From positions 798,131 through 862,130 of the forward strand of contig OY969116.1 of the NCBI GenBank assembly GCA_963698075.1: a DNA stretch of 64,000 nucleotides, read 5' to 3'. Positions 1,819 to 43,374 of this stretch are shown here, one piece after another. How positions within the stretch are numbered: the stretch's first letter is position 1; the number at the start of each line of letters is the position of its first letter. A program made the position numbers and the translations under genes. The notes beneath the pieces were generated by a model. That model saw only the letters and a list, made by a program, of their open reading frames with translations. It was not told where the DNA came from and ran no database searches. The stretch is from an uncultured Candidatus Berkelbacteria bacterium. Its GTDB lineage: Bacteria > Patescibacteriota > UBA1384 > UBA12157 > JAENIV01.

Positions 1819-1848
1819 TTGACATTTGAGTGTTTTTATGGTATAATA
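1819..1848 (+). promoter_or_regulatory. sigma70-type promoter (TTGACA-17-TGgTATAAT)
   Basis: TTGACA at 1819-1824 and extended -10 tggTATAAT at 1839-1847, read directly from the sequence. Confidence 0.5.
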
Positions 1849-2040
1849 TGAATTACCTAAAGATAGGAAACTCTTGAGGATAGAACTGAAACGTGCTAAA
1901 CTCAAGAGCGAAGTTGACACTGAATCGGGGACGGAAAGGGGTTTGCGGTGTTGAGGCGTCTGATAGTGTTACTGGCCTGCGCTTGGGATTGGTGGGCCAA
2001 GACCGTCTTGAGCTGAAAGGATCGAAAGGAGACAAGCAAC

Positions 2041-2310
2041 ATGGCAGTCGACGGTTACGCTGCAGAGGACGAAGACATCTTCGATTGGAGCGATCTGGCC
2101 CGCTGGTATCGGGGCCATCGCTGGTTCGTCTGGGGATTCATCGGCCTGTTTTTCGGCTGGTGCATCCGCGCCGGGTTTGGCCAAGGTGGCTGGTACCAGC
2201 TCCACGCCACTTGGTACCACTACCCGCCGTCGTTGTTCTGGGGGCTTCTGGGCTGGGCGATTCAAACTCTCGGAGGGCTTCTGCTTCTCTGGGGGTTCGC
2301 GAAGAGGTAG
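2041..2310 (+). CDS. small Trp-rich membrane protein (GC-rich island A), hypothetical
   Basis: 89 aa, ~60% GC in an AT-rich background. AGGAG RBS 9 nt upstream, ~190-nt 5' leader, intrinsic terminator downstream. W/G-rich hydrophobic sequence. Confidence 0.4.
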   Translation: MAVDGYAAEDEDIFDWSDLARWYRGHRWFVWGFIGLFFGWCIRAGFGQGGWYQLHATWYHYPPSLFWGLLGWAIQTLGGLLLLWGFAKR

Positions 2311-2436
2311 GCTGCGTCGTTCACGGAGGGGATTTCGATCCCCACCACGGCCCCGCTCATCGGGGCCAAAGAGCAAGTTGTGGCTGTTGGCTCCGTTCAC
2401 AGCGGGGCAGGAGGTCGCAATTTGCTCTGTCGTACG

Positions 2437-2475
2437 GGGCCGTTCGGCGTGCAGCCGAACGGCCCGCTTTTTTAA
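2437..2475 (+). terminator. rho-independent terminator
   Basis: 12-bp GC stem GGGCCGTTCGGC/GCCGAACGGCCC, then TTTTTT. Confidence 0.6.
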
Positions 2476-2531
2476 TTTTTAGACCTGTTAATATGATTGA
2501 CATTTACCTCAAAATAGAATGCCTAAAATCC

Positions 2532-2560
2532 TTGACTTACAAGGTATTTTATGGTATACT
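2532..2560 (+). promoter_or_regulatory. sigma70-type promoter (TTGACT-17-TGgTATACT)
   Basis: Same architecture as the promoter at 1819; precedes two small ORFs. Confidence 0.45.
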
Positions 2561-2604
2561 ATATAAATAATCGGGATACTAAAAATAAAAACAAAGGAAA
2601 AGCG

Positions 2605-2790
2605 ATGAGTGAAAAATCAATCATTTCCTTCGAGCAAAAAGCAATTTTGACCGAGGAGCAAAAAAGATATCTTGGCCAAAGAGCCAGGGATTTGACCGAA
2701 GAAGAATCCGAATATATTGACTGGCAAACTAATGATCCAGAAAGACAAGAGAGAATTTCTGCTCGACACCGAAAGATGGAGACCCATTAA
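2605..2790 (+). CDS. hypothetical small acidic protein (61 aa)
   Basis: ATG at 2605 with a GGA-rich RBS; E/Q/R-rich, no recognisable domain. Confidence 0.35.
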   Translation: MSEKSIISFEQKAILTEEQKRYLGQRARDLTEEESEYIDWQTNDPERQERISARHRKMETH

Positions 2791-4412: not shown

Positions 4413-5014
4413 TGAAAAACAATGAAAAAACTCTTATTGCCATCAAACCCGAGTCCATCCAGCGTCATCTTATCGGTGAATTTATTTCTAAATTTGAAAA
4501 AAGAGGTCTGAAGTTGGTTGCCTGTAAGATGGTTGTGCCCACGAAAGTTCAAATTGAAAAACACTATCCCGATGATGAAGCCTGGTACGTTTCCTCAGGC
4601 ACCAAAACATATGAAAACTATCAAGAGCGGGGGATTGATCCCGGGATGACGCCGATTGAGTTGGCCAAACGCACTCGCCAAAGATTAATCGAGCATTTGT
4701 CGGATCGGCCGTTGTTGTTGATGGTTTGGGAAGGGCCGCATGCCGTGGCTTTGGGAAGAAAAACTGCTGGCGCCACCAATCCTTTGATCGCGGATATTGG
4801 CTCGATTCGAGGTGATTATAGCGCTGAAAGTTATGAACTGGCCGATGACATTGAACGTGCCATTCACACTCTCATTCATGCCTCTGGTTCTCCCAAAGAG
4901 GCTGAGACGGAAATTAAGCTCTGGTTTTCCAAAGACGAAATTCTCGATTATGATTTAATCACCGAAAATGTTTTTTATACCAAAGAATGGGGCAAAGTCA
5001 AAAAGAAGAAATAA
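4409..5014 (+). CDS. ndk: nucleoside-diphosphate kinase-like protein
   Basis: NDK-like N-terminus (TLIAIKPESIQRHLIGEFISKFEKRGLKLVA) with insertions; ATGA overlap with the upstream gene. Confidence 0.65.
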   Translation: MMKNNEKTLIAIKPESIQRHLIGEFISKFEKRGLKLVACKMVVPTKVQIEKHYPDDEAWYVSSGTKTYENYQERGIDPGMTPIELAKRTRQRLIEHLSDRPLLLMVWEGPHAVALGRKTAGATNPLIADIGSIRGDYSAESYELADDIERAIHTLIHASGSPKEAETEIKLWFSKDEILDYDLITENVFYTKEWGKVKKKK

Positions 5015-5026
5015 AGTGGTTAAACT

Positions 5027-6228: not shown

Positions 6229-6984
6229 TTAGTTTTTCTTTGCCATTCTCCAGGCCATTTCAAAGAAATTTCGATATGAGTTCGCAATATTTTCGCTCTC
6301 AATTAAGATCACAAAAACCTCTTTTCTAAGCGAGAAAATCGCCAGTTTATTGCCAAAAATCATATTATCGTTTTCTTGAAATTCAATCCCTCTGGGAAAA
6401 AACCTGATTTGATGGTTTGGATTGGCATTTTGGCTAATTTTTTTAAGATAATCAGAATCTTTCAGTTCTTCTTTCATCAAAATTTCTCGGGCTTTGAATC
6501 TTTTATTTTTCATCGCCCGAACCCACATATCGAGCAAATCTTTATATTCCTCCAAAAAATGCTTGGTAGAGCCAAAGTAGAGGACTTCTTTGCCGGTTTT
6601 AAGATTTTCTGCCATCTCTCGGTAGATTAACTCCACGCCCGCCCGGCCCTCAAAAACCTGAATCGAGGGCTTATGGGGCTGCTCATGATAAAACCTGTCT
6701 AATTCAGGTAGGACTTTTTCCAGGGTATCTTTTTGTTTTTCGATTTTCAAGAGTAATTTAGTCGGGGAAATAACTGAATAAAAGGTAACTTTGGGAGTTT
6801 TTTTGATGGCAACTAAACCGTGTTTTTTGAGTTTTTCTAAGATAAAATAAACGGTTGAGCGCTTAAGACCGCTTCTTTGGGCGAGATTGTAGGCCGTCTC
6901 CTGACCCATTTTAAGGGAGGCGAGATAGACCTTCGCCTCCTTTTCATTTAAACCGATTGTCTCCAAAACCTCTTCAATCCTCAT
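6229..6984 (-). CDS. TrmB-family transcriptional regulator
   Basis: N-terminal TrmB winged HTH (LNEKEAKVYLASLKMGQETAYNLAQRSGLKRSTVYFILEKL). Confidence 0.75.
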   Translation of the reverse strand: MRIEEVLETIGLNEKEAKVYLASLKMGQETAYNLAQRSGLKRSTVYFILEKLKKHGLVAIKKTPKVTFYSVISPTKLLLKIEKQKDTLEKVLPELDRFYHEQPHKPSIQVFEGRAGVELIYREMAENLKTGKEVLYFGSTKHFLEEYKDLLDMWVRAMKNKRFKAREILMKEELKDSDYLKKISQNANPNHQIRFFPRGIEFQENDNMIFGNKLAIFSLRKEVFVILIESENIANSYRNFFEMAWRMAKKN

Positions 6985-7099
6985 ATCTTAAGTATACCAT
7001 AAATAGGAGCCAGTGTCAATATTTTCGACAACACTATAAACGACATAAGATTACAATACTTCAATAAACCATATAAACACGCATAAATAGTCTAAAGTA

Positions 7100-7128
7100 T
7101 TGACAATATCGAGGGCATATGGTATACT
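7100..7128 (+). promoter_or_regulatory. sigma70-type promoter (TTGACA-17-TGgTATACT)
   Basis: TTGACA at 7100-7105 and TATACT at 7123-7128, directly upstream of GC-rich island B. Confidence 0.5.
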
Positions 7129-7170
7129 CTATAGTTGTAAAATCGAACCTTGACAAGAAGGGAGAAAAGG

Positions 7171-7392
7171 GTGTCATATTCCGTTGATATGTGCTTATTG
7201 TTACTGGTTAGTTGCTTCGTCATCTTGATATTGGTTGTAGTCGGATTCGGCATCTGGTTTGATTTGCGGCATGAAGCGGGTAAGAAAATCCCACCTTTTT
7301 GGTTTCGTGTCTACCTGCTGCTGGTCTGGTGCTGGTTGTTTATTACTGTTTGGGTTCTAGCGGCAAAACACATAAAGGAGTGTTTCCGATGA
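7171..7392 (+). CDS. small two-TM Trp-rich membrane protein (island B), hypothetical
   Basis: GTG start with a GGGAG RBS. Its stop overlaps the downstream start in an ATGA junction, so the two genes are translationally coupled. Confidence 0.4.
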   Translation: MSYSVDMCLLLLVSCFVILILVVVGFGIWFDLRHEAGKKIPPFWFRVYLLLVWCWLFITVWVLAAKHIKECFR

Positions 7393-8795
7393 AAGATGCT
7401 CTGATTTCCCCTCAGGAATTCAAGGCCAATCCGTATCTCGATCCGGACTGGGAGGAATCGACCGGACTGGGTTATCTCGGAGCCGTAGCCCAAGAAATGG
7501 GCCATGAGGTCAAGCTCTTTGTGCCAACTACCGAGACGCTGTCCGAACTCTGCCGCGAGGTGATCGCCTGGAAGCCGGATGTCGTCGGTCTGCAACTCTA
7601 CACCTGCCAAGTGCCTGACGGACTGGCGATGACCAAGAGAATCAGAAAGGCTTTGCCTAGCGCGCTTATCGTGGCCGGAGGGCCTCACCCGAGCGCCCTG
7701 CCGAATGTCATCTCTGAATCAGCTATTGACCTGGCCGTAATCGGTGAGGGCGAAGAGACCTGGCGCGAGATTCTAAGAGTCTGTGAGGCCGGAAGTCGGG
7801 ATTTCAGTCAGATTCAAGGGCTCGCTTACAAGGACAGGGGCGGAAGAGTAACTCGGACTGAGTCAAGACCAAGAATTGATGATCTCGGAAAGTTGCCCTC
7901 GTCACCAATGAGGATTGACCCGCGCCAGTTCCGATACCAGCCAGGCGATCCTTGCAGTCTCTACTATCCGGAACCCTCGAGAGTCATATGTATTTCGGAT
8001 GTGGCTGGTAGGGGTTGCACCCACAACTGTCGTTTCTGCAGTTCCCCGAAGCTCTGGGAACGTTGCTACAAGGTTCGTTCTTGTGGTGACGTAGCTGAGG
8101 AGAGCTTCGTTGGTCCCAAAGAGAAATGGGGAGTCAACCTAGTTTTCATGGAAGACCTGACATTTTCGCTGGCTCCAAAATGGGTTGAGTTGTTCTGCAA
8201 GCAGCTTCTCGTGCGGAAGATTAACATGAACTGGTGGTGCCAGACAACGGTGCGATCAGTCACGCCAGAACTTCTGGCGTTGATGCGAAAGGCTGGCTGC
8301 CGGACGGTCGCCTGGGGAATTGAAGCAACAGATGAAGCCAGCCAAAAGTGGATGGGCGAGAAGCAATCTCTAGAGGAGACGAGGTTGGTGCTAGATGCGG
8401 CGGCCAAGCTCGGCATCATCAACTGGGGCTACGTGGTATTTGCTTGGCCTACCCAGACGCTCGATGCGGTCTGGAGAAATGCGATGGAACTTCGAAAACT
8501 CAACCTCCACCGCATCCGGCTTTCAATCGCCACCCCATTGCCTGGTTCGGAATGGTTCGACGATTTCCATGCTGGTGAGCTCTCGACCGACTGGCGGCTC
8601 TTTGACACCGACCACCTCGTCTTTGACCACCCACACATCGGTCCAACCGAGATCCGTGAGGTCCGGGCCGAGATCTTCAGCCAGTTCTACTCGTCGAAGG
8701 CATATCGAGGGCGCGTCGAGCAGTTCGTGGCCCGTTTTCCGGAGCTCGAGCAGAGCTTCACCGAATTCTTCGCCTACACCATGAAGTTCGTGTAG
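7389..8795 (+). CDS. B12-binding domain radical SAM enzyme
   Basis: N-terminal cobalamin-binding domain (DVVGLQ...IVAGGPHPS) and radical SAM cluster motif CTHNCRFC; ~57% GC. Confidence 0.8.
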   Translation: MKDALISPQEFKANPYLDPDWEESTGLGYLGAVAQEMGHEVKLFVPTTETLSELCREVIAWKPDVVGLQLYTCQVPDGLAMTKRIRKALPSALIVAGGPHPSALPNVISESAIDLAVIGEGEETWREILRVCEAGSRDFSQIQGLAYKDRGGRVTRTESRPRIDDLGKLPSSPMRIDPRQFRYQPGDPCSLYYPEPSRVICISDVAGRGCTHNCRFCSSPKLWERCYKVRSCGDVAEESFVGPKEKWGVNLVFMEDLTFSLAPKWVELFCKQLLVRKINMNWWCQTTVRSVTPELLALMRKAGCRTVAWGIEATDEASQKWMGEKQSLEETRLVLDAAAKLGIINWGYVVFAWPTQTLDAVWRNAMELRKLNLHRIRLSIATPLPGSEWFDDFHAGELSTDWRLFDTDHLVFDHPHIGPTEIREVRAEIFSQFYSSKAYRGRVEQFVARFPELEQSFTEFFAYTMKFV

Positions 8796-8801
8796 GTTTG
8801 G

Positions 8802-8836
8802 GCCCCGTCTAGATGTTTAGACGGGGCTTCTTTTTT
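8802..8836 (+). terminator. rho-independent terminator
   Basis: GCCCCGTCTA-gatgttt-TAGACGGGGC, then a T-run. Confidence 0.6.
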
Positions 8837-8865
8837 AACTGAAGAATTGATAAGATAGAATTAGA

Positions 8866-13737: not shown

Positions 13738-14010
13738 ATGGCTCACACAAAAGCTAAGGGAACCAGTAAATTAGGTAGAGATAGTCGTTCAAAACGCTTA
13801 GGCGTTAAAGTTTTCGGTGGTCAAAAAATCAATGCCGGTCAAATAATTATCCGCCAGCGCGGTTCTAAATATTATGCGGGGGCGGGAGTCGCTCGAGCGA
13901 ATGACGATACTTTATATGCCAAAAAAACAGGGGTGATACGCTTTGACAATCGTCTAAGCCGTCGTTTCAGCGGCCGACTGTCGGATAAAACCGTCGTTTC
14001 CGTGGCTTGA
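13738..14010 (+). CDS. rpmA: 50S ribosomal protein L27
   Basis: MAHTKAKGTSKLGRDSRSKRLGVK... L27 signature. Confidence 0.9.
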   Translation: MAHTKAKGTSKLGRDSRSKRLGVKVFGGQKINAGQIIIRQRGSKYYAGAGVARANDDTLYAKKTGVIRFDNRLSRRFSGRLSDKTVVSVA

Positions 14011-14035
14011 GATTTCAAGAAAGTCTGGTGATCTG

Positions 14036-14058
14036 CCTGTCGGCAGACAGGTTTTCTT
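14036..14058 (+). terminator. terminator hairpin after rpmA
   Basis: CCTGTC-ggca-GACAGG followed by TTTTCTT. Confidence 0.5.
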
Positions 14059-14258
14059 GAGGGCTCAAGCAGTACCTTGAACAACCGAATAGAGCTCCCA
14101 AATTCCTTGGCGAAGGGAGGGATGCGTATCGAAGAGGTCACCGTCTTCTCCGAGAGGAGACCGGCGACATCATTAGTTCTAGTGTGTCAAAGGCCTTCTC
14201 CACACAGCAAACCCCGCAAGCCCAGGGGCGATGGGCTAGTCACAGTCAGGAGAGGCAG

Positions 14259-14633
14259 ATGGAAGAAGGAGCCGATTCAGCCGAAGTGAGGCCAGTGTGC
14301 CTCATGGTTGTCTCCGACAATGGCAATGGCCAGAAGCGCGTAGGCAAGGAAGCCGAGCCAACGTGCTTCAGTCGCGTCGTCTTTCCCCTGGGGGTCAAAA
14401 TGCAGTTTTCGCCAAGCGCGATCCCCCAACCGATCCGTTGCTGGACTGGTTTGGATCCAAGCGATCCATGCCAGAAAGGAGATCTCGTCGTTCCCCCTGA
14501 AGGCAGCGGAGTCCTCGCTTTCTCAAGTGAGGTCTCCGTGAACGTCGGTGATGAGTTCTGGCGCCAGGGCATCAGGCTGATGCCAGCCGATATCCAGGCC
14601 GCCAAGGCCTCAGGGGTGCAGTTCATCGAGTGA
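14259..14633 (+). CDS. hypothetical protein in GC-rich island C (weak call)
   Basis: ATG with AGGAGAGG RBS; stop is immediately followed by a strong terminator. Overlapping ORFs exist on both strands of this GC-rich block, so coding status is uncertain. Confidence 0.2.
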   Translation: MEEGADSAEVRPVCLMVVSDNGNGQKRVGKEAEPTCFSRVVFPLGVKMQFSPSAIPQPIRCWTGLDPSDPCQKGDLVVPPEGSGVLAFSSEVSVNVGDEFWRQGIRLMPADIQAAKASGVQFIE

Positions 14634-14655
14634 TGGACGCGTCGATCAGTCGGAT

Positions 14656-14692
14656 GGGCCGTCCCCCTGCGGGGGGACGGCCCAGTTTTTTT
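14656..14692 (+). terminator. rho-independent terminator
   Basis: GGGCCGTCCCCC-tgcg-GGGGGACGGCCC, then TTTTTTT. Confidence 0.55.
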
Positions 14693-14743
14693 CTTCTAAA
14701 GCTTGAATAAACTTTAATTATATGATAAATTAAATCCGTTAAA

Positions 14744-18987: not shown

Positions 18988-18991
18988 TATT

Positions 18992-19061
18992 GCGAGATAG
19001 TTTAATGGTAGAACACCAGGCTCTGGACCTGGTAATCCTGGTTCGAGTCCAGGTCTCGCAG
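18992..19061 (+). tRNA. tRNA-Gln(CTG)
   Basis: Cloverleaf with acceptor GCGAGAT/GTCTCGC, anticodon loop CT-CTG-GA and T-arm CCTGG-TTCGAGT-CCAGG. Ends are approximate (±2 nt). Confidence 0.75.
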
Positions 19062-19067
19062 CCAAAT

Positions 19068-19140
19068 GGCGTGTTCGTCTAGTGGTTAGGACGCAGGGTT
19101 CTCAGCCCTGTAACACGGGTCCGACTCCCGTACACGCTAT
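19068..19140 (+). tRNA. tRNA-Glu(CTC)
   Basis: Acceptor GGCGTGT/ACACGCT, anticodon loop TT-CTC-AG, D-arm TAGTGGTTAGGA. The T-loop (TCCGACT) is non-canonical. Confidence 0.7.
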
Positions 19141-24861: not shown

Positions 24862-24971
24862 TTTATCCAAAATTTTTAATTGAACTCAGTAATTATCAAA
24901 GCTTTTTTGATTGTTTTTTTAAGCTTTATCTGTTAGAATAATCTTAACTCGAAGTGGGGAGGACGTTGAGA

Positions 24972-25778
24972 ATGGCACGTGCGGCCTGGATTGTCATTAT
25001 CGCTGTCGTCGTCTGCACTTTCATAGGCGTACAAGTGTACGACAACCAGATGGTTCCAACGATGAAGAAGATCCAGGTTGTCTGTGATGATCCCAAACAC
25101 CAAGGCAACCGAGTCGTCTTGACTGATGAGAAACCGACTATCGCTAAAAGAAAGGATGCTCGTCACGAGATTGTCGAAGTCCAGCGTACCTCTGCCTGTC
25201 TGCAATGCCAGAAGCGCAAAGAGCAAGAATTCCAGATTGCCAGATCAAGAGCCGAGACAGATGATCTGATAAGGCATCTTGATTATCATTTCGCGTTCGA
25301 GCTAGCTTTCGCCACTGAATATGTTCGAGAGAAGTCATTGCCACCAGGCGGCGGGATCACCTTCCACGTTGATGTTAAGAATAAAGGATCTAGCGTCATC
25401 GAAGGGTTGCGGTTTATTGTTCAGCCCGTAAGCTATCTCTATTTGACGCCATTCCGGGAGGTTTCGGTATTCGACCGGGCATTACACGATGTTCACGTTG
25501 GCTACGACAAGAAGGACGCCGCGCTCTTGAAGAATCTGACGACCACTGGCTTGGCCGTCTGCGACTACCAAGGACGCAGCAAGCTTTTCCCTCAGGGTAA
25601 TCCCTATTATCCGGAAAACGTGGGTTATTGTGACACGGCGTTTATGTTGCGCGGTCGATTGGCGTTGAGTCCTAAACTCCAACCTGGTCAGGATGTCCAG
25701 TTCCAGGGATACCTCATCTACAAGAATAAGAAGATTCCCCTCGGTACCCTGACGGTCCACGTTATGTATCCTGGCTAA
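24972..25778 (+). CDS. membrane-anchored hypothetical protein (GC-rich island E)
   Basis: GGGAGGA RBS; N-terminal TM helix (AAWIVIIAVVVCTFIGV); no recognisable domain; ~57% GC. Confidence 0.4.
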   Translation: MARAAWIVIIAVVVCTFIGVQVYDNQMVPTMKKIQVVCDDPKHQGNRVVLTDEKPTIAKRKDARHEIVEVQRTSACLQCQKRKEQEFQIARSRAETDDLIRHLDYHFAFELAFATEYVREKSLPPGGGITFHVDVKNKGSSVIEGLRFIVQPVSYLYLTPFREVSVFDRALHDVHVGYDKKDAALLKNLTTTGLAVCDYQGRSKLFPQGNPYYPENVGYCDTAFMLRGRLALSPKLQPGQDVQFQGYLIYKNKKIPLGTLTVHVMYPG

Positions 25779-30378: not shown

Positions 30379-31779
30379 TTAGATCCTTTTGATAACAGGT
30401 CCGGATTTGCTGTCTTGAACTTCATATCCGTGTTTGAGTAACTCTTCGCGAATCGTGTCGGCTCTTGCCCAGTCGTGGTTGGTTCGGGCTCTTGATCTTT
30501 CTTCGATTAGAACACGAACTTCATCTGGTATAGTTTCTTCTCTGATTCTGAACGGGTCTATGCCCAAGACTTGGTCAAAGGATCCCGCTATCTTGATCTT
30601 CATAGCGGGAGCGATTCTCGGGCTATCGACGACTCCCCAGAGTACGGCTAGGGCTTTCGGCGTATTGAGGTCATCGTTTATGTTTTGGAGGAAGCGTGTC
30701 CTGTACTCGTCGAAAATTGGATCGTTCGCTTTCACTTCACCCTGGTTTTGACCCCTCAGGTCGATAAACTTCTGTCTTAGTCTTTTGAGGGCGTTCTTGG
30801 CTCCGTCCAGCCCCTCAAATGTGAATTCGAGGGGACTACGATAATGTGCTCCCAAAAGGTAATAACGGTAGTCAAGCGGATCGTAGCCTCGGTCGATAAG
30901 GCTTTGGAGCGTCAGGAAACCACTACCTGACTTCGCCATTTTTTCGTCACCACCGACGATCAAAAAATCGTTGTGTAGCCAGTAGGAAACCCATTGGTGA
31001 CCAAGGGCGCCTTCGCTCTGGGCGATTTCGTTGGTGTGATGAACGGGAATGTGATCAATTCCCCCTGTGTGTATGTCAAATCTTTCGCCGAGGTATTTGC
31101 TTGCCATGGCTGAGCATTCGATGTGCCAACCTGGAAAGCCTCGTCCCCATGGCGAATCCCAGAGCATCGCATGACTGGAGTACTTATAGAAAGTAAACCA
31201 GAGCACAAAATCATGGGGAGACCGCTTATTGGGATCTTTCTCCACTCGAGCAATGTTTGAGGATTTGCTTAGATTTAGCCTTGCCAATCTTCCGTAATCC
31301 GGGAACTTAGAGGTGTCGAAGTACACATTGCCACCCGCGACGTACGCCAACCCGCGTTCTTCCAGACGCCTGATCATGGCGATGATTTCGGGAATATGTT
31401 GAGTTGCTGGGCATATGATGTTAGGCCGCTCGACTTGCAATAACTCTAAATCGTGAAGAAAAGCCTGAGTGTAGAAATCGGCGATTTCCCAAACAGTTTT
31501 CCCTTCTCGGGTTGCACTTTTCTCGATTTTATCTTCGCCTTCATCGGCGTCACTAGAAAGATGTCCTACGTCGGTGATGTTCATAACATGTTGAACATCG
31601 TAACCATTTACGCGAAACATCTTCTTAAGTGTATCGGCAAAAACGTAGGCCCTCAGATTGCCTATGTGGGCATAATTGTAAACTGTCGGGCCACAGGTGT
31701 ATATCCCGACTTTTCCAGGGACAAAGGGTCTGAAAACCTCTTTCTTTCGACTCATCGTGTTTGTGAGCTTAATCTCCAT
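30379..31779 (-). CDS. cysS: cysteinyl-tRNA synthetase
   Basis: [13 protein letters not shown] and KMAKSGSG motifs. Start placed at MEIKLTN, which has a GAAAGGAGG RBS. Confidence 0.95.
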
Positions 31780-31888
31780 TTTGTAACCTCCTTTCGCAAG
31801 GTGGGACTGAAGTATGTTATCCCTGAATACAAGGGATGATGAATGATCCATCCCTCTTGCATAATTTTATAATAAAATTATGCTTATG

Positions 31889-32899
31889 TCAATCACTAAT
31901 CTCCGAGAGCTTAGAAAACATTTTGTTGTTTAATAATTTTCTCGCCATTGAATTTGTGAGGACCTGTTTTAATTCTTGTTTTGATTTTACTAAGAAAAAG
32001 GATAGAAAGCCGTGGACATCACTTTTTTCTTGGGCATTGAATTTATTTTCAATCAATCGGAAGAACCTATCAATGTATGGGTCTTTTATTAATTGATATG
32101 AATCAAGATTTTTATAAGAATATTCATAAGGATTTTCGGGAAAATTTTTAATATTCTTTTTTACATACATAGATATTTCTTGATAAAGTTTATTTAAAAA
32201 TCTGATTCTTCTTTCAACATCTTCTTTCAGATAACTTTTAATTTTCATAGCCTCTTTTAAATTATTAAGACAATCCTGCGGCACAAAGGGAAAAGTTGCC
32301 AGAAAAGGTATGCTCCATTTTTTATGAGGCATAAATTGTTTATTAATGAGAAACAAGAGCTCAATTATTGAATCTACGCCATCGTTAATTAAATAATGAG
32401 CTGTCTCTGGGAATCCTCTTTTAAGTGCTCTTCGGGTGTGTATATTGACGTGCCAATTATATTGTCCCATTATCTTGATGATTCTGTTCTTTCTGTATGT
32501 TTCATCATGTTGAATTTTTCTTTCAATGAATTTTTTAACTTTTTCATTTTTATCGTAGACCAACAATCCATTAGCGAAAACAGCCTTTTTCCCTTCGGGC
32601 CATTCATTCCATTTATTTATCAGGTTTTCCTGATGTATATTAAATTCTAAAACTCTATTTTTATATTTGAGGTGAAATTCAAAACCTGGAAGATAGTCTG
32701 GAATGTTCTTTGTGTTGATAAAAATTGCCATATCCAAATCAGAAAATTTATCAATAAATCTTCGTTTCCCGAGTCCTCCGAGTAATACAATTCCTTCAAT
32801 CTCTTTCTTGGATTGAAAATTGGATACTAACAATTCGATTAATTCGTCGTATTGTTTTTTAATATTGAATGTTTTTAATTTTAACGTCATTTTGGACAT
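31889..32899 (-). CDS. Pol-beta-superfamily nucleotidyltransferase-like protein
   Basis: GGLGKRRFIDKFSDLDMAIF fits the minimal NTase motif (G[GS]x9-13DxD); lies in a very AT-rich island. Confidence 0.45.
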   Translation of the reverse strand: MSKMTLKLKTFNIKKQYDELIELLVSNFQSKKEIEGIVLLGGLGKRRFIDKFSDLDMAIFINTKNIPDYLPGFEFHLKYKNRVLEFNIHQENLINKWNEWPEGKKAVFANGLLVYDKNEKVKKFIERKIQHDETYRKNRIIKIMGQYNWHVNIHTRRALKRGFPETAHYLINDGVDSIIELLFLINKQFMPHKKWSIPFLATFPFVPQDCLNNLKEAMKIKSYLKEDVERRIRFLNKLYQEISMYVKKNIKNFPENPYEYSYKNLDSYQLIKDPYIDRFFRLIENKFNAQEKSDVHGFLSFFLVKSKQELKQVLTNSMARKLLNNKMFSKLSEISD

Positions 32900-32900
32900 G

Positions 32901-33737
32901 TTATCTAATTTTAATGTGTCTAATTTTTACACTTTGCCCGAAAACTATCTTCGCCAACGAATTTATGTTTCTTGACCATTCTTTTATTTCACCCGTGGTG
33001 TAGAATATTACATTTTCTAATTTTTTATTTGATTCGTCGAAGGGTCTCTTCTGTCTAAAAAATTCTGTAATCATATTACCTGGATCTAAATAAATTAAAT
33101 TTTTCCCAAATTCTATTTTTATCTCCTCTTGTATAAAACAAAAGCAGGTGCATCCCAGTAATACACCGTCTAAACTGTATTCTTTATATGATTTTAAATT
33201 TTTTAATATTCTATTTTTTCCCTCATTCGTATTGTGTTGTCCTCTTGCGATAACCGCTTCGCTTTCTGTTAAAATAAAATTTACCATTTTTTGGGGTTTG
33301 GCCATTTTAATGAGTTTAAAATATAATCCTGAATTTATTGTGTATTTAGTACCCAATACACCAATATTTCTATTACCTATAAAAACGGCAGAGTCTTTTA
33401 AAAGCAATTTTAACAGATCTACCATAGTTATAATTGTTATGTTGTATTTCTTTGAAATAATATTTTTAAAAGAATTTATAGCTATTGACGCTGTATTGCA
33501 GGCGACAACCAATAAAGTGAGTTTACTAATTTTGTTAAAATATCTCAGCCAACCGTCTACAATATTTATAATCTCTTTTTTAGATTTCAATCCGAATGGG
33601 TTCATCTCACCGTCAGCAAGAAATATAACATTATATTCTCCAATTTTATCTGAAAGATTTTTTAAGACAATGATACCACATGCGCATGAATCGGCAATTA
33701 ATATGGTTTTTTTAGTTTTGTCTAGTTTCTTATTCAT
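32901..33737 (-). CDS. Asp/Glu/hydantoin racemase family protein (MurI-like)
   Basis: Both catalytic-cysteine motifs are present: VVACNTASI and LLGCTCF. Confidence 0.65.
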   Translation of the reverse strand: MNKKLDKTKKTILIADSCACGIIVLKNLSDKIGEYNVIFLADGEMNPFGLKSKKEIINIVDGWLRYFNKISKLTLLVVACNTASIAINSFKNIISKKYNITIITMVDLLKLLLKDSAVFIGNRNIGVLGTKYTINSGLYFKLIKMAKPQKMVNFILTESEAVIARGQHNTNEGKNRILKNLKSYKEYSLDGVLLGCTCFCFIQEEIKIEFGKNLIYLDPGNMITEFFRQKRPFDESNKKLENVIFYTTGEIKEWSRNINSLAKIVFGQSVKIRHIKIR

Positions 33738-34920
33738 ATCCTTTTTTATTATAAGAATCCAATAAGATTTTTGCCATTCCGTTCATGGTTATTTGCATTT
33801 CTAAAGCGGGGCTACTATTACCCTCAATAACAATCGCTCCATCGGGAGTAAGTGTTATATCCCAGCCAATACAAGTAATAGTTGGAAAAAGATTGGCACA
33901 TTTAATCGCTAGATTGGTGACTTGCTTAATCTGTTTTACTTTTTTATTTCTAAATACGTATCCAGAGTTAATGTGAGCAGAATAAGTGTCTAATTTTCCA
34001 TCGTAAGCAATATTAGCCATTGAACCATCTTTAATATCAATCTGAAGATGTAGTCCACCTCCATGAACATTATCAATAAAAGATTTATTTATTCCACATC
34101 GCAGCGTACAAGCTAAAACACTAGTCCCTGTAAAGTGAGAGAAGTATGTTAGGACTCTGAAGGTATTTACCGAGGAGGAGTTAATTTTTTTTAATTCTTC
34201 GATTTGTTCTATACCTTCTTGTAATATCCAATCTCTAAAAGATAAGGTTTGCAGATATTCAATATCAAGCTTGATCTTTTTATCATTTTTAAAGATCATT
34301 TTACTTTTATCATACAAGAAAAGCATTATTTCATTACCGCCGCTTCCGGCATCAGCCGGCTTCATGAAGATTCTCTTTGATTTTGTAGAACTTAATGTTT
34401 TATTTAATTCAGCATTATTTTTAATTATTTCACAATCTTTATTGAATATTGTTCCTCTTTTTATTTTTATTAATGTGGTTGGTATTGGTATTTTGTAACC
34501 CCTGCAGATTTCCTCAAATATATTTTTGTCGTCAAGAAGCCATATATTTTTGTTTATTTTAGGCAAAATTTTGTAATACATAACTGTTTCGGGCATAAAG
34601 TTTAGTACCTCTTTATATGAGAAACTTTTGTCATACAACTTGTACCTGAAATAGTGAAACGGAAGGCATCGCCATGCTAAGGTTAACTTAATAAGCTCTA
34701 ATAGGGTCCCAATGAACCCCTTTTTGTTTTTATATTGTGAGAATTGAGCGATTTGATTATTTTTAAAATCTTTAACTTGGTATAAAAGCCATTTTGGCCA
34801 GGCATAAAATCGCAATCCCAGCGCTTCCATTTTCTCATATGAGATTTGGATGTTTTTATTAAAACTCATCGATTTATTATTTTTCATTTTCGAATTCGAC
34901 TTTAGAAAAAATAAGTACAT
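33730..34920 (-). CDS. ATP-grasp-like ligase (sugar-transfer-associated ATP-grasp family, putative)
   Basis: FMKPADAGSGGNEI P-loop-like motif; ~396 aa; overlaps the racemase gene. Confidence 0.4.
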   Translation of the reverse strand: MYLFFLKSNSKMKNNKSMSFNKNIQISYEKMEALGLRFYAWPKWLLYQVKDFKNNQIAQFSQYKNKKGFIGTLLELIKLTLAWRCLPFHYFRYKLYDKSFSYKEVLNFMPETVMYYKILPKINKNIWLLDDKNIFEEICRGYKIPIPTTLIKIKRGTIFNKDCEIIKNNAELNKTLSSTKSKRIFMKPADAGSGGNEIMLFLYDKSKMIFKNDKKIKLDIEYLQTLSFRDWILQEGIEQIEELKKINSSSVNTFRVLTYFSHFTGTSVLACTLRCGINKSFIDNVHGGGLHLQIDIKDGSMANIAYDGKLDTYSAHINSGYVFRNKKVKQIKQVTNLAIKCANLFPTITCIGWDITLTPDGAIVIEGNSSPALEMQITMNGMAKILLDSYNKKGYE

Positions 34921-35029
34921 CTTTCTTTGGAGAATATTATCAGGTTATTTATTCTTTGTCAAGCTATCCCTGAAAATGTAAGTCTAAAGTTATAAAAAAG
35001 AAGAATCCGTCCCGGAGTGGGACGGATGA

Positions 35030-35371
35030 CTAGAACTCGAGTTCTGAAAGGTGAAAGTCTTGGACGGTAGAGAAGGCTCCAACCATCCAGGCTCGAAGAT
35101 TAGTGGTAACGAACTCTCTAAGGATGACGCAGATGGCCTCCTCGATCTCATCCTTGTTTGTTTGGGCGTTTGCTTCCTTGGTATCGATGTGGATCTGGGC
35201 GAAGAGACCAGCGCTGTCGGATAAGTGGGATGGAACGATCTCGACGAAAATCGGTTTGACGATGGTGTCGATATTCAGTATCTCAGCAACCTTGCTCTGA
35301 ATATTGTCTCGCAGAGCTTTCTGTTCGTCTGGGCTGATGGTGTCAGGTATGCCGTAAATGTGGATGAGCAT
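35030..35371 (-). CDS. tandem tautomerase-fold-like small protein, paralog A
   Basis: Two beta-alpha-beta halves resembling 4-OT (LIHIYGIP...DEQKALRDNIQSKVAEIL...PIFVEIVP). ~90% identical to 43375..43716. Has its own promoter and terminator. Confidence 0.35.
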   Translation of the reverse strand: MLIHIYGIPDTISPDEQKALRDNIQSKVAEILNIDTIVKPIFVEIVPSHLSDSAGLFAQIHIDTKEANAQTNKDEIEEAICVILREFVTTNLRAWMVGAFSTVQDFHLSELEF

Positions 35372-35560
35372 CGGTTTCCTCCAGTGAGACGCTTTAGGGT
35401 TATTATCTCACATTTTATAGAGATGTCAATGTTTTTGAACCTTTCTCATTTCCTGCTATAATGAAAATAAGTCTAATCTTTTTATATATGGAAAATAAAT
35501 CAATTCCGATTATTAATTCATATAATGAATGGGATCCTTTAGAAGATAACGGAGGGGTTT

Positions 35561-38785: not shown

Positions 38786-38869
38786 AATTATTTATTTGAT
38801 CTACAAACTATTGATTTTTAAATCATATTCTTTTAGAATTAGACTAACCAGTTGAACCAGGAGACAGAC

Positions 38870-39139
38870 ATGGAGCGATTCGTCAAGATTGTTATTGAAG
38901 GCGAAACCACTGATAACCTGTGGTCCCAGATCGACTCAATCGATGGTATCCAGATGGTTGAGCGCATCCGTACTTCCTCCCAGGCAGTAGCGTTTTACCG
39001 TATCGAGGCCAGCAAGTTTGACTGTGCCTCAGAGAGATTGAGGACCTATGGGGAGATTTCTGAACTGGACGCCGACGAGCAGAAAAGGTTGTTGGTAAGA
39101 TACAATACCATGCAGCGAATTGCAGCTGCAAGGCTATAG
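38870..39139 (+). CDS. hypothetical protein (GC-richer mini-island)
   Basis: Own TTGATT-17-TAGAAT promoter, CAGGAGA RBS and a terminator hairpin at ~39165-39195. Confidence 0.3.
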   Translation: MERFVKIVIEGETTDNLWSQIDSIDGIQMVERIRTSSQAVAFYRIEASKFDCASERLRTYGEISELDADEQKRLLVRYNTMQRIAAARL

Positions 39140-39268
39140 TTCTCCAACCAGAGCATTAAACAAAGGATTCTGGCCGACACCAGAGTCCTTTTCAAAATCA
39201 TAACTCGGGACCAAGGCGATGTGATAAAAACTCTTGCTAGAATTACTTCTACGTGCTAAAATCGAATC

Positions 39269-40975: not shown

Positions 40976-40981
40976 AAAACA

Positions 40982-41908
40982 TTGAAAATACTTAAGAATC
41001 TTTACGGTAAAGAAAAAAACGATGAGTATTTCAAGTTGCTTTTATCGGCCGGGGAAGGGTTTTTAGTAGAAACGTTGATTGGTAAATGTGTCGTTTCAAA
41101 AAAAGGACTTTTTCCTAAACTAAATCTCCCAGATAGTTCTTTAAGAAAAACACACGTGTTCTGTTGTGTTTCTACTCAAATTGGCTGCGTCAACACTTGT
41201 CGTTTTTGCAATAATCGAAAAAAGCGCTTCGTAAGAAATTTAAGTCTGTCAGAAATAAAACAAGAGGTAGATGAAGCTCAAAAAATCTCCCGAAAATTCT
41301 TTGGTCAGAGACTGGAGGAAATTCAATTCGGGGGGATTGGTGAGCCGCTTCTGAATTTGGAAAATGTTATCCGGACAATCGAAATCTTTCACAAGGAAGA
41401 CCAAAATGTCTTTTTTGGGTTTCCGACAACTGGCTTACCGCTAAAAAATTTTCAAAAATTGATTAGAAAATTTTCTGACAAACTCTTGCCAATTTACTTA
41501 CAGATCTCTTTGCACGCCTCAAATGATATTCTTAGGAAAAAAATAATGGGTGTGGGAAACATCCGTCAGATTATACAACTGGCCCAAGAATATTCGGAAA
41601 AGGTTAAATCTCCTGTTATTATTAACTACTTAATGATTCGACAAGTTAATGATCAAATCTGCTTTGCGGATGAGCTCATCCGTTTGTTAGACCAACATTC
41701 GTTAACAAATAAGGTGGTTGTCAAACTATCAATACCAAATGATACAAACACGAAATTTAGCTGTCCGTCGGATGAAAAAAGAATAGACGAATTTAAAGAA
41801 AGACTCGTATCGGCTGGAATTGATGTGGCTGTCTTCGTTAGCGGGGGGAAATCTGTGAAAGCCGGGTGCGGTCAACTTACGGTTTCCCATCAAAAAATCC
41901 AAAAATAA
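40982..41908 (+). CDS. RlmN/Cfr-family radical SAM RNA methyltransferase-like protein
   Basis: CVSTQIGCVNTCRFC cluster motif, GIGEPLLN, and C-terminal GGKSVKAGCGQL, which matches the RlmN second catalytic Cys. Confidence 0.7.
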   Translation: MKILKNLYGKEKNDEYFKLLLSAGEGFLVETLIGKCVVSKKGLFPKLNLPDSSLRKTHVFCCVSTQIGCVNTCRFCNNRKKRFVRNLSLSEIKQEVDEAQKISRKFFGQRLEEIQFGGIGEPLLNLENVIRTIEIFHKEDQNVFFGFPTTGLPLKNFQKLIRKFSDKLLPIYLQISLHASNDILRKKIMGVGNIRQIIQLAQEYSEKVKSPVIINYLMIRQVNDQICFADELIRLLDQHSLTNKVVVKLSIPNDTNTKFSCPSDEKRIDEFKERLVSAGIDVAVFVSGGKSVKAGCGQLTVSHQKIQK

Positions 41909-42010
41909 CAGCAAAAATTGTTTTTTTGTTCTAATTGTGTTTTAATGGATGTGCGAAACGTGTGCAGTGTCGTTCTGCCATGTTTTGTAGAACATTGAAA
42001 GGAGAAGGGC

Positions 42011-42067
42011 ATGAAGAGGTACGTACGCCCGACCATCAGGCGGATCGCCCGCATCACGACCACCTAG
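42011..42067 (+). CDS. candidate RiPP precursor peptide (18 aa, MKRYVRPTIRRIARITTT)
   Basis: AAAGGAGAAGGG RBS then ATG, located 5' of a PqqD-like RRE and an rSAM-SPASM gene; highly cationic, no Cys. Confidence 0.35.
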   Translation: MKRYVRPTIRRIARITTT

Positions 42068-42144
42068 GGGCGATTCGCCGGAAGCCGCACAAGAGGAGGA
42101 GGTTTACACAACTCCTCCTCTATTCGTAGTAAAGGAGAAAGGAA

Positions 42145-42390
42145 GTGTTGAAAACCGCCGAAGGAGTCAGATTCAGTCCCACGGAACCTCTGGTCTACCA
42201 CGATCAGGATTTGTTTGAGGCTAACGAAGTCACCTTGCGGATTCTCGATCTCTGTCAGCAGCCGCAGGACCAGGAGGATCTAGTCGCCCGGCTCGGTTGC
42301 GAATATCAGGTCGCCGAGAACGAATTGGCAGATGATGTTTCCGCTATCGTCTCCGACCTGGTTCAATGCGGCATTCTGGTGGAAGTGTGA
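42145..42390 (+). CDS. PqqD-family RiPP recognition element protein
   Basis: 81 aa with the PqqD pattern (EANEVTLRILDLC...QEDLVARL...DVSAIVSDLVQCGIL); GTG start with AAAGGAGAAAGG RBS. Confidence 0.65.
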   Translation: MLKTAEGVRFSPTEPLVYHDQDLFEANEVTLRILDLCQQPQDQEDLVARLGCEYQVAENELADDVSAIVSDLVQCGILVEV

Positions 42391-43292
42391 TGGCCAGCGT
42401 CTATCCCGTCACCGTCATGTGGAACTTCGGCTATCAGTGCAATATGAATTGCATCCACTGCTACTCAAGACAAGACGCCAGGGCAAACATCGAACACGAA
42501 ATGACACTGGTGCAGGCCGAGCACATTGCTGCCGAGATAATCGCCGCCAAAGCCGTCCATACCCATTTCGGAGGGGGTGAGTCCTTGATGAGACCAGACT
42601 TTGGTCCGATCGCTTCCTCACTGACGAGCACCGGCATTAACGTGAGTCTAAGTTCCAATGGGGCGTTTATCGATGAAAGCACAGCGAATCTCCTTCGAGT
42701 TATACCTCTCGATTTTGTTTCCTTGAGTTTTCACGGTATCAAAGCCGCAACGCACGACGCATTCACCCGTCATCCGGGTTCTTTCGACGGTTTGCTACGA
42801 GCGGCTACCATTCTCAAGGCGGCCGGCGTGAGGACGAAGATCGTTTTCTCGCTCCACGCTCGTAGCAGAGATGAGGCCCCCGGGGTCTTTGATCTGGCGC
42901 GAGAGTGCGGTGTTACCTTCGTGCAGTTTGCCTATGTCAAAGCCGTGGGAAACGCGGCCGAAAACCTCACAAGTTTGCAGTTGAGTCCTTCAGAATGGGT
43001 AGCTTTGTATTCGGCAATCCGCACCCAGGCCGAATCTTACCCTGATCTGAATATTCACTTTGGTCTAGACAACAATCCCATAATCGCAGGCTATGTGGGG
43101 CAAACCATTCTCCCATGTCCGTGCGGAAGATATTCGATCGCAATCAAGCCCAATGGGGATGTCTCCCCGTGCAATGTCGTTACTACCGTCGTGGGAAACG
43201 TCTATCGCCAATCCCTGCTCGATATTTGGCAAGAGGCACCGGAGCTTATCAAAATCCGCTCCGGGACGGCAAATCCCTGCGCCTCCTTTTAA
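42390..43292 (+). CDS. radical SAM enzyme with C-terminal SPASM/twitch domain (PqqE-like peptide maturase)
   Basis: CNMNCIHC cluster motif near the N-terminus and a C-terminal CPCG...SPC auxiliary-cluster Cys motif; 1-nt overlap with the PqqD-like gene. Confidence 0.8.
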   Translation: MASVYPVTVMWNFGYQCNMNCIHCYSRQDARANIEHEMTLVQAEHIAAEIIAAKAVHTHFGGGESLMRPDFGPIASSLTSTGINVSLSSNGAFIDESTANLLRVIPLDFVSLSFHGIKAATHDAFTRHPGSFDGLLRAATILKAAGVRTKIVFSLHARSRDEAPGVFDLARECGVTFVQFAYVKAVGNAAENLTSLQLSPSEWVALYSAIRTQAESYPDLNIHFGLDNNPIIAGYVGQTILPCPCGRYSIAIKPNGDVSPCNVVTTVVGNVYRQSLLDIWQEAPELIKIRSGTANPCASF

Positions 43293-43374
43293 CGAATCCG
43301 ATCCAGTAGAGGGAGTTCATACTCCCTTTTCGTTTATATAAAGAAGAATCCGTCCCGGAAGGGGACGGATGATG

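Follow-up and report, generated by a model that had tools for sequence, protein, structure and literature searches.

The stretch of DNA analysed here, referred to as the window, comprises 64,000 nucleotides of contig OY969116.1 (assembly GCA_963698075.1) of an uncultured Candidatus Berkelbacteria bacterium. Its backbone consists of housekeeping genes, including dnaE, rpmA, rplS, gltX, thrS, cysS, dnaX, dnaB and uvrD, a type IV pilus cluster and two tRNA genes. Between them lie seven short segments of elevated GC content, here called islands 1 to 7, which are the subject of this report; they are listed with their surroundings in Table 1. The DnaE protein is 74% identical to that of a Candidatus Berkelbacteria metagenome-assembled genome (MAG) and 72% identical to that of a 'Patescibacteria group' MAG. 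An independent Logan assembly matches positions 9694-20304 at 99.99% identity, and one contig present in NCBI, ENA and Logan encodes two of the island proteins at 100% identity. Because of the housekeeping backbone, the DnaE matches, the identical island proteins and the agreement of the Logan assembly, we regard the window as part of the chromosome of a candidate phyla radiation (CPR) bacterium and not as a chimera.

Table 1. Islands, neighbouring genes and other features of the window
Feature	Position	Strand	Remarks
Island 1 promoter	1819..1847	+	TTGACA-17-TATAAT with extended TG; 12/12 match
Island 1 transcription unit	1855..2470	+	5' untranslated region (UTR) GC 0.50; open reading frame (ORF) 2041-2310; 3'UTR GC 0.63; terminator 2437-2465
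TrmB-family regulator	6229..6984	-	AT-rich, apparently leaderless; divergent from island 2
Island 2 unit	7100..8829	+	promoter 7100-7128 (11/12 plus TG); ORF 7171-7392; radical SAM (rSAM) gene 7389-8795; terminator 8800-8829
rpmA (ribosomal protein L27)	13738..14010	+	conserved neighbour upstream of island 3
Island 3 leader	14011..14258	+	rpmA hairpin (~14016-14060), then conserved GC-rich leader
Gene A (island 3)	14259..14633	+	124-aa hypervariable all-beta protein; orphan family
Island 3 terminator	14655..14684	+	13-bp stem with 11 GC pairs; kept in L010
tRNA-Gln(CUG) and tRNA-Glu(CUC)	18991..19140	+	adjacent; the two tRNAs found by the Rfam scan
Island 4 PHP / CehA-McbA-like metallohydrolase	22975..24417	+	480 aa; divergent from histidine kinase 21611-22873(-)
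Island 5	24954..25778	+	274-aa protein with N-terminal membrane anchor
cysS and low-GC block	30379..34920	-	cysS GC 0.48; block GC 0.29-0.31
113-aa unit, copy 1	34997..35440	-	promoter, Shine-Dalgarno sequence, coding sequence (CDS) 35030-35371, terminator; GC3 0.63
Island 6	38870..39139	+	89-aa protein; 64% identity to first gene of GC-rich cassette in L033/L034
Island 7 RiPP-like cassette	42011..43329	+	precursor ORF 42011-42067; hairpin 42093-42120; PqqD-like 42145-42390; rSAM/SPASM 42366-43292; terminator 43308-43329
113-aa unit, copy 2	43340..43780	-	CDS 43375-43716; 86% nucleotide identity to copy 1 over a 300-nt repeat

The GC content of the backbone is 40.9% and that of the islands ranges from 48.1 to 57.5% (z 2.8-10.3), with 0.575 for 1850-2480, 0.531 for 7100-8840, 0.572 for 14011-14700, 0.511 for 22900-24470, 0.509 for 24950-25860, 0.481 for 38850-39200 and 0.533 for 41990-43320 (islands 1 to 7 in that order). 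The GC mosaic noted in a preliminary description of this DNA is thus real, although its level, given as 55-60% against 40-45%, was overstated; an AT-rich island of '~28%' GC reported at 31889-34920 is borne out at 30.1% (z = -12). Measured over 400 nt at a time, the GC content has a standard deviation of 0.060, compared with 0.025 for a binomial expectation. The contrast is greatest at the third codon position (GC3 0.56-0.67 in island ORFs, about 0.40 in core genes), and GC1 and GC2 are raised in the island ORFs too. A check of codon usage confirmed the deviation of islands from backbone both in GC3 and at two-fold codons, where C/(C+T) is 0.56 in island and 0.29 in core genes and G/(G+A) 0.62 and 0.29; at four-fold sites the GC content is 0.60 versus 0.53. 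The island UTRs are GC-rich as well. Beyond the seven islands, further GC-rich pieces were identified: the two 113-aa paralogues at 35030-35371(-) and 43375-43716(-), both with a GC3 of 0.63, the segment 43805-44014, cysS (30379-31851, GC 0.48) and a Phd/YefM fusion gene (848-1678). In the fusion gene only GC1 and GC2 are high, and its GC excess is therefore ascribed to amino acid composition.

The cargo of the islands is accessory, as had been proposed. It includes a B12-binding rSAM protein, a weak match to PHP / CehA-McbA-like hydrolases, a PqqD-like protein with an rSAM/SPASM partner and a small Trp-rich membrane ORF. No Pfam, PHROG or PADLOC family explains protein A of island 3, its companion B in relatives, the 274-aa protein of island 5 or the 113-aa protein.

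Loci of relatives (labelled L) were collected by DnaE scans, which yielded eight genome loci, L002 and L004 being close relatives, and 21 metagenome loci; further syntenic contigs were found through homologues of ThrRS, the B12-rSAM and the PHP-like protein. Islands 1 to 4 are GC-rich at the same positions in relatives whose DnaE is 69-86% identical, and the flanking core genes are AT-rich there. Islands 6 and 7 have a GC-rich counterpart as well. The preliminary description had read the islands as repeated acquisitions of cassettes from a high-GC donor, and comparison with sister genomes argues against this: synteny with the same GC contrast was found for islands 1-4 and 6+7. Absence from the orthologous site, which would be expected of recent horizontal gene transfer (HGT), is not seen for these islands and is seen only for the segment at 30.2-35.6 kb. 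Protein affinities reveal no donor family either, for the contigs examined are CPR-like and the named homologues belong to Patescibacteria. We therefore think it probable that the islands belong natively to this Berkelbacteria-like (Patescibacteria/CPR) genome, as a class of transcription units found throughout its lineage, and are not recent imports.

That each island was instead acquired recently and independently from a high-GC donor organism is now very improbable. In its favour are a composition that is atypical at all three codon positions, a dialect that looks foreign, and the lack of any counterpart of island 5 and the 113-aa genes in the relatives fetched. Against this, synteny and GC contrast are kept across near-saturated synonymous divergence, homologues are confined to Patescibacteria-type contigs, and there is neither a sign of amelioration nor a mobility gene. 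From these comparisons, donor acquisition appears largely refuted for islands 1-4 and 6/7.

Island 1 lies in a slot between the Phd-fusion gene and an M16 peptidase gene. Its ORF encodes an 89-aa Trp-rich membrane peptide preceded by an AGGAG Shine-Dalgarno sequence, and by tblastn it is 40-44% identical to the GC-rich ORFs that L020 and L024 have in this slot. The slot is GC-rich in L019, L020, L024, L037 and L040, and its content differs: L037 has a 233-aa ORF with a GC3 of 0.77, and L040 has five ORFs with GC contents of 0.55-0.60.

Island 2 consists of a small Trp-rich membrane ORF followed by the B12-binding rSAM gene. The order TrmB(-), promoter, small membrane ORF, B12-rSAM is shared with L037 and L040, in which the promoter and 5'UTR are also kept, the promoter being almost identical in L037 and more diverged in L040. 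The B12-rSAM proteins of these two loci are only 45-48% identical to that of the window (gene GC 0.50), while the adjacent TrmB is 84-85% identical and AT-rich (0.33). The nearest B12-rSAM relatives examined (P0123, P0124 and P0127; 40-46%) all have a TrmB gene beside them on contigs of CPR type, and for two the synteny is complete; in L041 the gene has a GC content of 0.39. The TrmB regulator itself is more conserved than DnaE (84-85% vs 73-74% in L037). L041, a distant CPR contig, carries complete TrmB paralogues at 4981-5718 and 7014-7772 and a third one cut by the end of the locus, and the last complete paralogue is divergent from a B12-rSAM gene.

The island 4 protein matches the PHP family weakly. 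Its gene keeps the order histidine kinase(-), PHP-like gene, ThiF in L042, L043 and L044, where the PHP-like protein is 63, 53 and 44% identical to that of the window, compared with 64-86% for the kinase and 78-91% for ThiF. The PHP-like genes of these loci have GC contents of 0.47, 0.50 and 0.38 against 0.43, 0.42 and 0.36 for the loci as a whole, and the 5'UTR element GTTGACAAGGAG is kept in L043. Among 5.8 billion proteins the PHP-like protein has 18 homologues, the named ones being from Patescibacteria or Berkelbacteria. A 5'UTR motif, (C/G)TTGACAAG(G/A)AG, stands directly before the gene starts of islands 2 and 4 (7147-7160 and 22951-22965) and is kept in the orthologues of L040 and L043; it may be a common regulatory or ribosome-loading element. 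The looser pattern ACCTTGAMMA is weakly enriched, with 4 matches and 0.9 expected. Island 5 matches no family, and none of the fetched relative loci has a homologue of it.

Island 3 occupies the spacer between rpmA and rplS. It has no promoter of its own and sits behind the rpmA hairpin. All 18 relatives with a readable spacer have GC-rich DNA there, 0.6-1.4 kb long. In 17 of them the GC content exceeds that of the core genes by 5-16 points along the full spacer, the exception being L014, where the GC-rich part is limited to the first ~1.2 kb. The spacer of relatives typically contains a leader of ~230 nt, gene A (90-124 aa) and gene B (210-240 aa), and in the window and L010 gene A stands alone. 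An early three-way alignment of the rpmA-rplS region had suggested non-homologous content, a reading abandoned after more relatives resolved the spacers into fast-evolving genes A and B and a conserved leader. The window and L010 align in two high-scoring segment pairs, one covering rpmA and the leader and the other the terminator and rplS, each at 79% identity, and the ORF between them cannot be aligned at the DNA level. The leader is also ~79% identical to that of L027 and 73% to those of L011-L013, again followed by an ORF that is unalignable as DNA. Protein A is 37% identical to its counterpart in L010, where DnaE is 87% identical, and the proportion of synonymous differences (pS) in this pair is 0.72 for gene A and 0.53-0.58 for the flanks. 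Only five cluster representatives of protein A were found among 1.84 billion proteins. Its AlphaFold2 model (predicted local distance difference test, pLDDT, 79.6) is all-beta and has no structural match in the PDB.

In the consensus fold of the leader (14053-14262), GAAGGGAGG pairs with CCUUCUCC; alternatively, CCUUCUCC could hide the Shine-Dalgarno sequence AGGAGAGG of gene A. The leader may thus possibly act as a three-part switch made up of GAAGGGAGG, CCUUCUCC and AGGAGAGG. A comparison of the leaders of L010, L012, L014 and L027 revealed compensatory changes in L012 and L014, and in L015, L016 and L024 a mini-ORF of a start codon, one further codon and a stop codon comes after the first element. 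No Rfam family matches the leader.

Islands 6 and 7 form one contiguous cassette in L033/L034, located between a seven-transmembrane (7TM) kinase gene and thrS, with a GC content of 0.51-0.61 against 0.41 and the gene order 89-aa gene, methyltransferase, precursor, PqqD, rSAM/SPASM. The two islands are split in the window by thrS and an AT-rich rSAM gene, and the cassette of L033 lies on the other side of thrS. Island 7 appears to be a cassette for a ribosomally synthesized and post-translationally modified peptide (RiPP): it begins with a previously unannotated 18-aa ORF, MKRYVRPTIRRIARITTT, a candidate precursor with a strong AGGAG Shine-Dalgarno sequence, followed by the hairpin GAGGAGGAGG...CUCCUCCUC and then by the PqqD-like and rSAM/SPASM genes. 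Domain matches are confident for the rSAM core (PF04055, 2.6e-18), the SPASM domain (PF13186, 4.7e-11) and the PqqD-like RiPP recognition element (PF05402, 1.4e-10, at 42145-42390). The precursor region is 83% identical in nucleotides to L033 (8614-8700), where the ORF reads MRKYRRPTIRRVARITTD; the PqqD and SPASM proteins are 43-44% and 59% identical to those of L033, while ThrRS is 76% identical. The island resembles known rSAM/SPASM and PqqD cassettes in having a short precursor, a PqqD-like protein and an rSAM/SPASM protein in canonical order. The nearest NCBIfam model is GeoRSP (TIGR04303), an equivalog to which the island 7 protein does not belong, scoring 164 bits against a cut-off of 400. 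It also differs in that the 18-aa peptide has no Cys and neither a protease nor an exporter gene is adjacent.

Taken over the islands, proteins are 35-64% identical and their neighbours 70-90%, a non-synonymous divergence 2-5 times faster; in the pairwise comparison the PHP-like protein is 46% identical while ThiF is 91% and the histidine kinase 86%. In the island ORFs the proportion of non-synonymous differences (pN) is below pS, and the ratio of the two rates (dN/dS) is 0.23-0.30 in the closer pairs, compared with 0.06-0.10 for housekeeping genes. Synonymous sites are near saturation between most of the genomes compared (pS 0.6-0.9), and the GC excess is still present. L017 served as outgroup to polarise the substitutions of L020 and L024 by parsimony. 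In this trio, changes from A or T to G or C (weak to strong) at third positions of genes A and B occur at 0.53 per site and the reverse changes at 0.18, which gives an equilibrium GC3 (GC3*) of 0.74, whereas that of the flanking core genes is 0.38 (Fisher p = 0.002 and 4e-8 for the two rate differences). The excess of strong-to-weak changes that amelioration would produce was thus not found in the island 3 genes, from one trio with small counts. Summed over all codon positions of the same trio, 38 weak-to-strong and 63 strong-to-weak changes give a GC* of 0.51.

The GC content of the spacer regressed on that of the core genes in 15 relatives has a slope of 0.98 and an intercept of 0.116 (r = 0.56, p = 0.03), and low-GC genomes have lower islands, the spacers of L019 and L021 being at 0.42-0.44 in genomes of 0.34 GC. 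A spacer GC that moves with the background of each genome, about 0.12 above it, fits long residence and not a common external source of high GC. We also considered that the islands are GC-rich because they are weakly constrained and have drifted to a mutational equilibrium. This was rejected: across 43 genes of the window GC3 does not correlate with relative divergence, and the fast-evolving pilin-like and kinase genes are AT-rich, so the islands are not merely unconstrained DNA.

Alleles at island 3 do not follow the rest of the genome. L015 and L024 have DnaE proteins that are 86% identical and A and B proteins that are only 28-30% identical. L020 and L024, with DnaE at 87%, have B proteins at 80%, and pS is 0.27-0.40 for A, B and L19 vs 0.61-0.67 for DnaE, L27 and GT. 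Judged from the sequences, this is the pattern of island alleles swapped between lineages across conserved flanks, and the allele incongruence and uneven pS, as far as genome comparisons go, are consistent with raised recombination at this locus. The cassette-type mobilisation that was proposed as an alternative to a donor holds in part: the units do appear modular, with divergence confined to the ORF, incongruent alleles, a relocated RiPP cassette and a duplicated unit, but neither an integrase nor attC was found.

The main rival to a native class of units is a pool of GC-rich mobile cassettes, carried by phages, plasmids, insertion sequences (IS) or DNA uptake, that re-seeds conserved hot spots and replaces alleles faster than they ameliorate. 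We hold this to be unlikely, although several observations suit it. The codon usage, Shine-Dalgarno sequences and terminators of the islands are distinct; island 3 shows incongruent alleles and ORF-confined divergence; a whole 113-aa unit from promoter to terminator has been duplicated; island 2 is patchy among relatives; and the RiPP cassette has moved relative to thrS. The position of island 5 in L042 (6583-7011) is taken by a Y1 (IS200-like) transposase gene with a GC3 of 0.61, and in L035 (4110-6386) an rve integrase gene adjoins a GC-rich orphan gene of 278 aa, so some mobile genes of the lineage may share the GC-rich style.

On the other side, around the islands of the window there is no integrase, att-like repeat or common k-mer. 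The absence of a visible integrase or transposase, stated in the preliminary description, was confirmed among the ~55 ORFs of the window scanned against protein families. A k-mer resembling uptake, att or Chi sequences is not enriched in the islands, the tRNA pair at 18991-19140 adjoins none of them, and within the window there is no homology among islands except for the 113-aa pair. In PHROGs and PADLOC the one match was a generic similarity of rSAM to viperin; two island proteins had no phage match by tblastn, and two had no match to viral contigs in IMG/VR. A phage, defence or plasmid origin of the islands was rejected on these grounds. Moreover, orthologous families stay beside the same regulators (TrmB, histidine kinase), and island GC follows the background of each genome, as in the spacers at 0.42-0.44, the B12-rSAM gene of L041 at 0.39 and the PHP-like gene of L044 at 0.38.

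As to expression signals, near-consensus promoters had been described before nearly every island. Islands 1 and 2 do have them (at least 11/12 matches), but island 3 has none and islands 4-7 reach 9-10/12 at best. Promoters matching at least 11/12 also precede both 113-aa genes. Equally good promoters are found before AT-rich core genes at 10127(-), 7019(-), 1791(-), 28027, 37389 and 31892(-), which makes them a trait of the genome and not of the islands. Of the GC-stem terminators said to end nearly every island, strong ones follow four of the seven, islands 1, 2, 3 and 7, and both 113-aa genes. The shared stem ends GGGCCGT...ACGGCCC at 2437 and 14656 hold up, with 2 matches vs 0 in 100 shuffles, and T-tracts that follow them mark the stems as terminators. 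Translation signals also show a split: 11 of 12 island starts, and only 6 of 41 core genes, are preceded by a Shine-Dalgarno sequence (AGGAG or GGAGG; p = 2e-6), and this is repeated in the loci of seven relatives (16/18 vs 38/106, p = 4e-5).

Many core genes have a -10-like box 6-8 nt before the start codon, for example TrmB at 6984(-), the M16 peptidase gene at 3114, an RNA ligase gene at 38183 and thrS at 39269, which suggests that many core mRNAs are leaderless and that such mRNAs are widespread in the window. The core genes are also AT-biased at two-fold synonymous sites (GC 0.29) and not at four-fold sites (GC 0.53, C being the commonest base). This unusual split suggests codon-specific selection or context-dependent mutation. 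The two tRNAs of the window, tRNA-Gln(CUG) and tRNA-Glu(CUC), are minor isoacceptors that read G-ending two-fold codons, rare in core and common in island genes; that the pair is linked to the islands is only a possibility.

These features raise the question of whether the GC excess results purely from selection at the level of RNA or translation, through gating by minor tRNAs or through mRNAs that are stable or resist AU-specific RNases or toxins, with no role for recombination. We give this a small chance. In its favour, the GC-rich DNA matches the extent of the transcription unit, including the UTRs; two-fold codons differ most, and the window has the C34 tRNAs that match them; translational control is suggested by the strong Shine-Dalgarno sites and the structured leaders; and the genome contains several toxin-antitoxin or PIN genes. 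However, GC1 and GC2 are raised as well and amino acid usage is hence shifted, coding sequences do not fold beyond what their composition predicts, and such selection by itself leaves the swapping of alleles and the raised synonymous divergence unexplained. Folding of island coding regions relative to composition has a z of -0.56 vs -0.28 (p = 0.36), that is, no extra structure, and selection for mRNA secondary structure in coding regions is not supported. Whole transcripts have z values of -4.1 for island 1 and -6.2 for island 3, and -0.5 for a gltX control; the strong values apparently stem mainly from UTRs, leaders and terminators, the CDS of A itself having a z of -2.9.

The same whole-transcript values, far better than those of shuffled sequences, and the several ORFs lacking a Pfam match are what could be said for the mosaic being an artefact, either of chimeric assembly or of GC-rich structured RNAs misread as genes. 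There is next to no chance of this. The junctions recur in independent JGI, ENA, Logan and NCBI assemblies, pS exceeds pN in island ORFs, domain matches and the fold of A are confident, and no Rfam family exceeds the threshold; these observations refute it. With gathering as well as E-value thresholds, the only Rfam matches of the window are the two tRNAs, the islands of relatives have none, and islands 1 and 3 were dismissed as structured RNAs since no Rfam family fits them and dN/dS shows them to be coding.

The segment that does look like an insertion is AT-rich. Positions 30192-35560 hold cysS, a low-GC trio and copy 1 of the 113-aa unit, none of which lies between the 526-aa gene and the 7TM histidine kinase gene in L031, L033, L042 and L044. 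The trio encodes a DUF4037 nucleotidyltransferase, an Asp/Glu racemase-like protein and a sugar-transfer ATP-grasp protein, and 82% of its Arg codons are AGR. Since the segment is missing between the same neighbours in four relatives, it is probably a genuine insertion or rearrangement by sequence comparison. Only this segment looks window-specific, and the best candidate for a recent insertion looks like an AT-rich block and not one of the GC-rich islands. The 113-aa unit has been duplicated whole, with homology that sets in at the -35 box and lasts through the terminator T-tract. Its protein has no match in Pfam, NCBIfam or PHROG and no homologue in any fetched relative, and its N-terminus resembles tautomerase-superfamily proteins as judged by eye only.

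Two kinds of repeats were observed elsewhere in the window. AT-rich intergenic repeats of TTAGAAATT / AGGATTTAGA-like units occur in both orientations at 708-844, 20226-20305 and 49826-49956, and similar runs are intergenic in L010. A G-rich imperfect tandem-like repeat of 42-nt units, 62-79% identical, lies at 58111-58260, just past the 5' end of the ORF at 57459-58070(-).

The comparisons show the islands to be old, syntenic accessory units that occur across the lineage, are Shine-Dalgarno-led, GC-rich and fast-evolving, and exchange alleles between lineages without signs of amelioration. Under the favoured reading of a native class, such loci may be regulated and fast-diversifying, serving accessory functions or host interaction, and the TrmB-paired rSAM, the kinase-paired hydrolase, the RiPP-like cassette and the small membrane peptides would be examples. 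They would act as recombination hot spots, and their GC excess would be actively kept by a force tied to the locus or to the transcript. The likeliest forces are a GC-biased outcome of recombination, resembling GC-biased gene conversion (gBGC), or selection on Shine-Dalgarno-dependent regulated expression, or both. A bolder proposal is that the islands represent a dedicated second gene 'dialect', consisting of Shine-Dalgarno-led, GC-rich, terminator-insulated hypervariable units in fixed slots, with leaders and terminators serving as recombination handles; we see it as speculative and would bet against it. If it were true, a locus-specific process of GC-biased recombination or hypervariation would diversify host-interaction proteins or peptides, cassettes would be exchanged without an integrase, and the islands would carry the strongest local gBGC-like signal yet in bacteria.

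Several observations weigh against the favoured reading of a native class whose GC excess is actively kept. The slot of island 1 is not GC-rich in L002, and island 2 is missing in many relatives. As none of the fetched relatives has a homologue of them, island 5 and the 113-aa genes could be recent gains, and the Y1 transposase with its GC3 of 0.61 in the island 5 slot of L042 indicates that a GC-rich mobile pool may exist. The polarised counts are small (17 weak-to-strong and 29 strong-to-weak third positions) and come from one trio analysed by parsimony at high divergence, and the regression of spacer GC, with n = 15, is not significant by Spearman correlation (p = 0.18). The effects of bacterial gBGC described by Lassalle et al. 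2015 are reportedly small shifts of GC3, not 20-30 points. The change in GC follows the borders of transcription units sharply, and a cause at the level of RNA or expression fits this at least as well as a recombination tract. One form of that cause, selection for specific mRNA folds, is itself disfavoured because the structure of island coding sequences does not exceed what composition alone would give.

Islands of deviant composition are commonly taken for HGT; here that inference fails, and the real insertion is an AT-rich block. If the pattern is genome-wide, it would be a cautionary case for GC-based calling of HGT, and possibly for binning, in CPR genomes. It would also offer a natural system in which to weigh recombination-linked GC bias against expression-linked selection as the force holding a 20-30 point gap in GC3, and a shortlist of candidate genes for the host-interaction machinery of episymbionts: the TrmB-paired rSAM, the kinase-paired hydrolase, the RiPP-like cassette and the beta-protein behind rpmA.

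The islands can be compared with several known systems. Like the genomic islands and islets of HGT, they have a sharp compositional contrast and accessory cargo, and are present or absent among relatives in the case of island 2 and the 30.2-35.6 kb block. They differ in that position and GC contrast are kept across family-level relatives without amelioration and in having no integrase, tRNA target, att repeats or donor-side homologues; only the AT-rich block is classical. With integron gene cassettes the units share the form of small single-gene modules with inverted-repeat ends, but the window has neither IntI nor attC, every unit brings a promoter or leader of its own, and the units lie scattered among core genes. 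The vls cassettes of Borrelia average 49.1% GC in a chromosome of ~28.6%, and strong pressure has been argued to maintain this (PMC11499132). The likeness to the islands lies in a hypervariable, recombination-driven locus held ~20 points GC-richer than an AT-rich genome. The window differs: it lacks arrays of silent cassettes, a strong GC skew (the skew is mostly within +/-0.2), G-runs and an expression-site architecture; no repeat families of island sequence that could form a vls-like donor array were found within the 64 kb except the 113-aa pair, and the exchange so far shown is one between lineages and not inside a cell.

gBGC predicts a gain of GC at all codon positions and an apparent acceleration of evolution. 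Lassalle et al. 2015 are said to have proposed it for bacteria and to have reported raised GC3 in recombining genes, with effects that are small and genome-wide. We know of no description of a discrete gene class with a GC3 excess of 20-30 points bounded by transcription-unit borders, and a literature search for GC-rich islands in Patescibacteria found none, a paper on 'hypervariation' in Gracilibacteria concerning a repeat gene with another pattern. Neither vls nor gBGC matches the islands in anatomy or magnitude. In the hypervariable regions of SAR11 and the islands of Prochlorococcus, conserved core genes flank a slot that diverges or is replaced far faster than the remaining genome, and the same is true of the islands described here. 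Those regions span tens of kilobases and are AT-shifted or mixed in composition, whereas the slots of the window are single units of 0.3-2 kb that are uniformly GC-shifted and have a Shine-Dalgarno and terminator style of their own.

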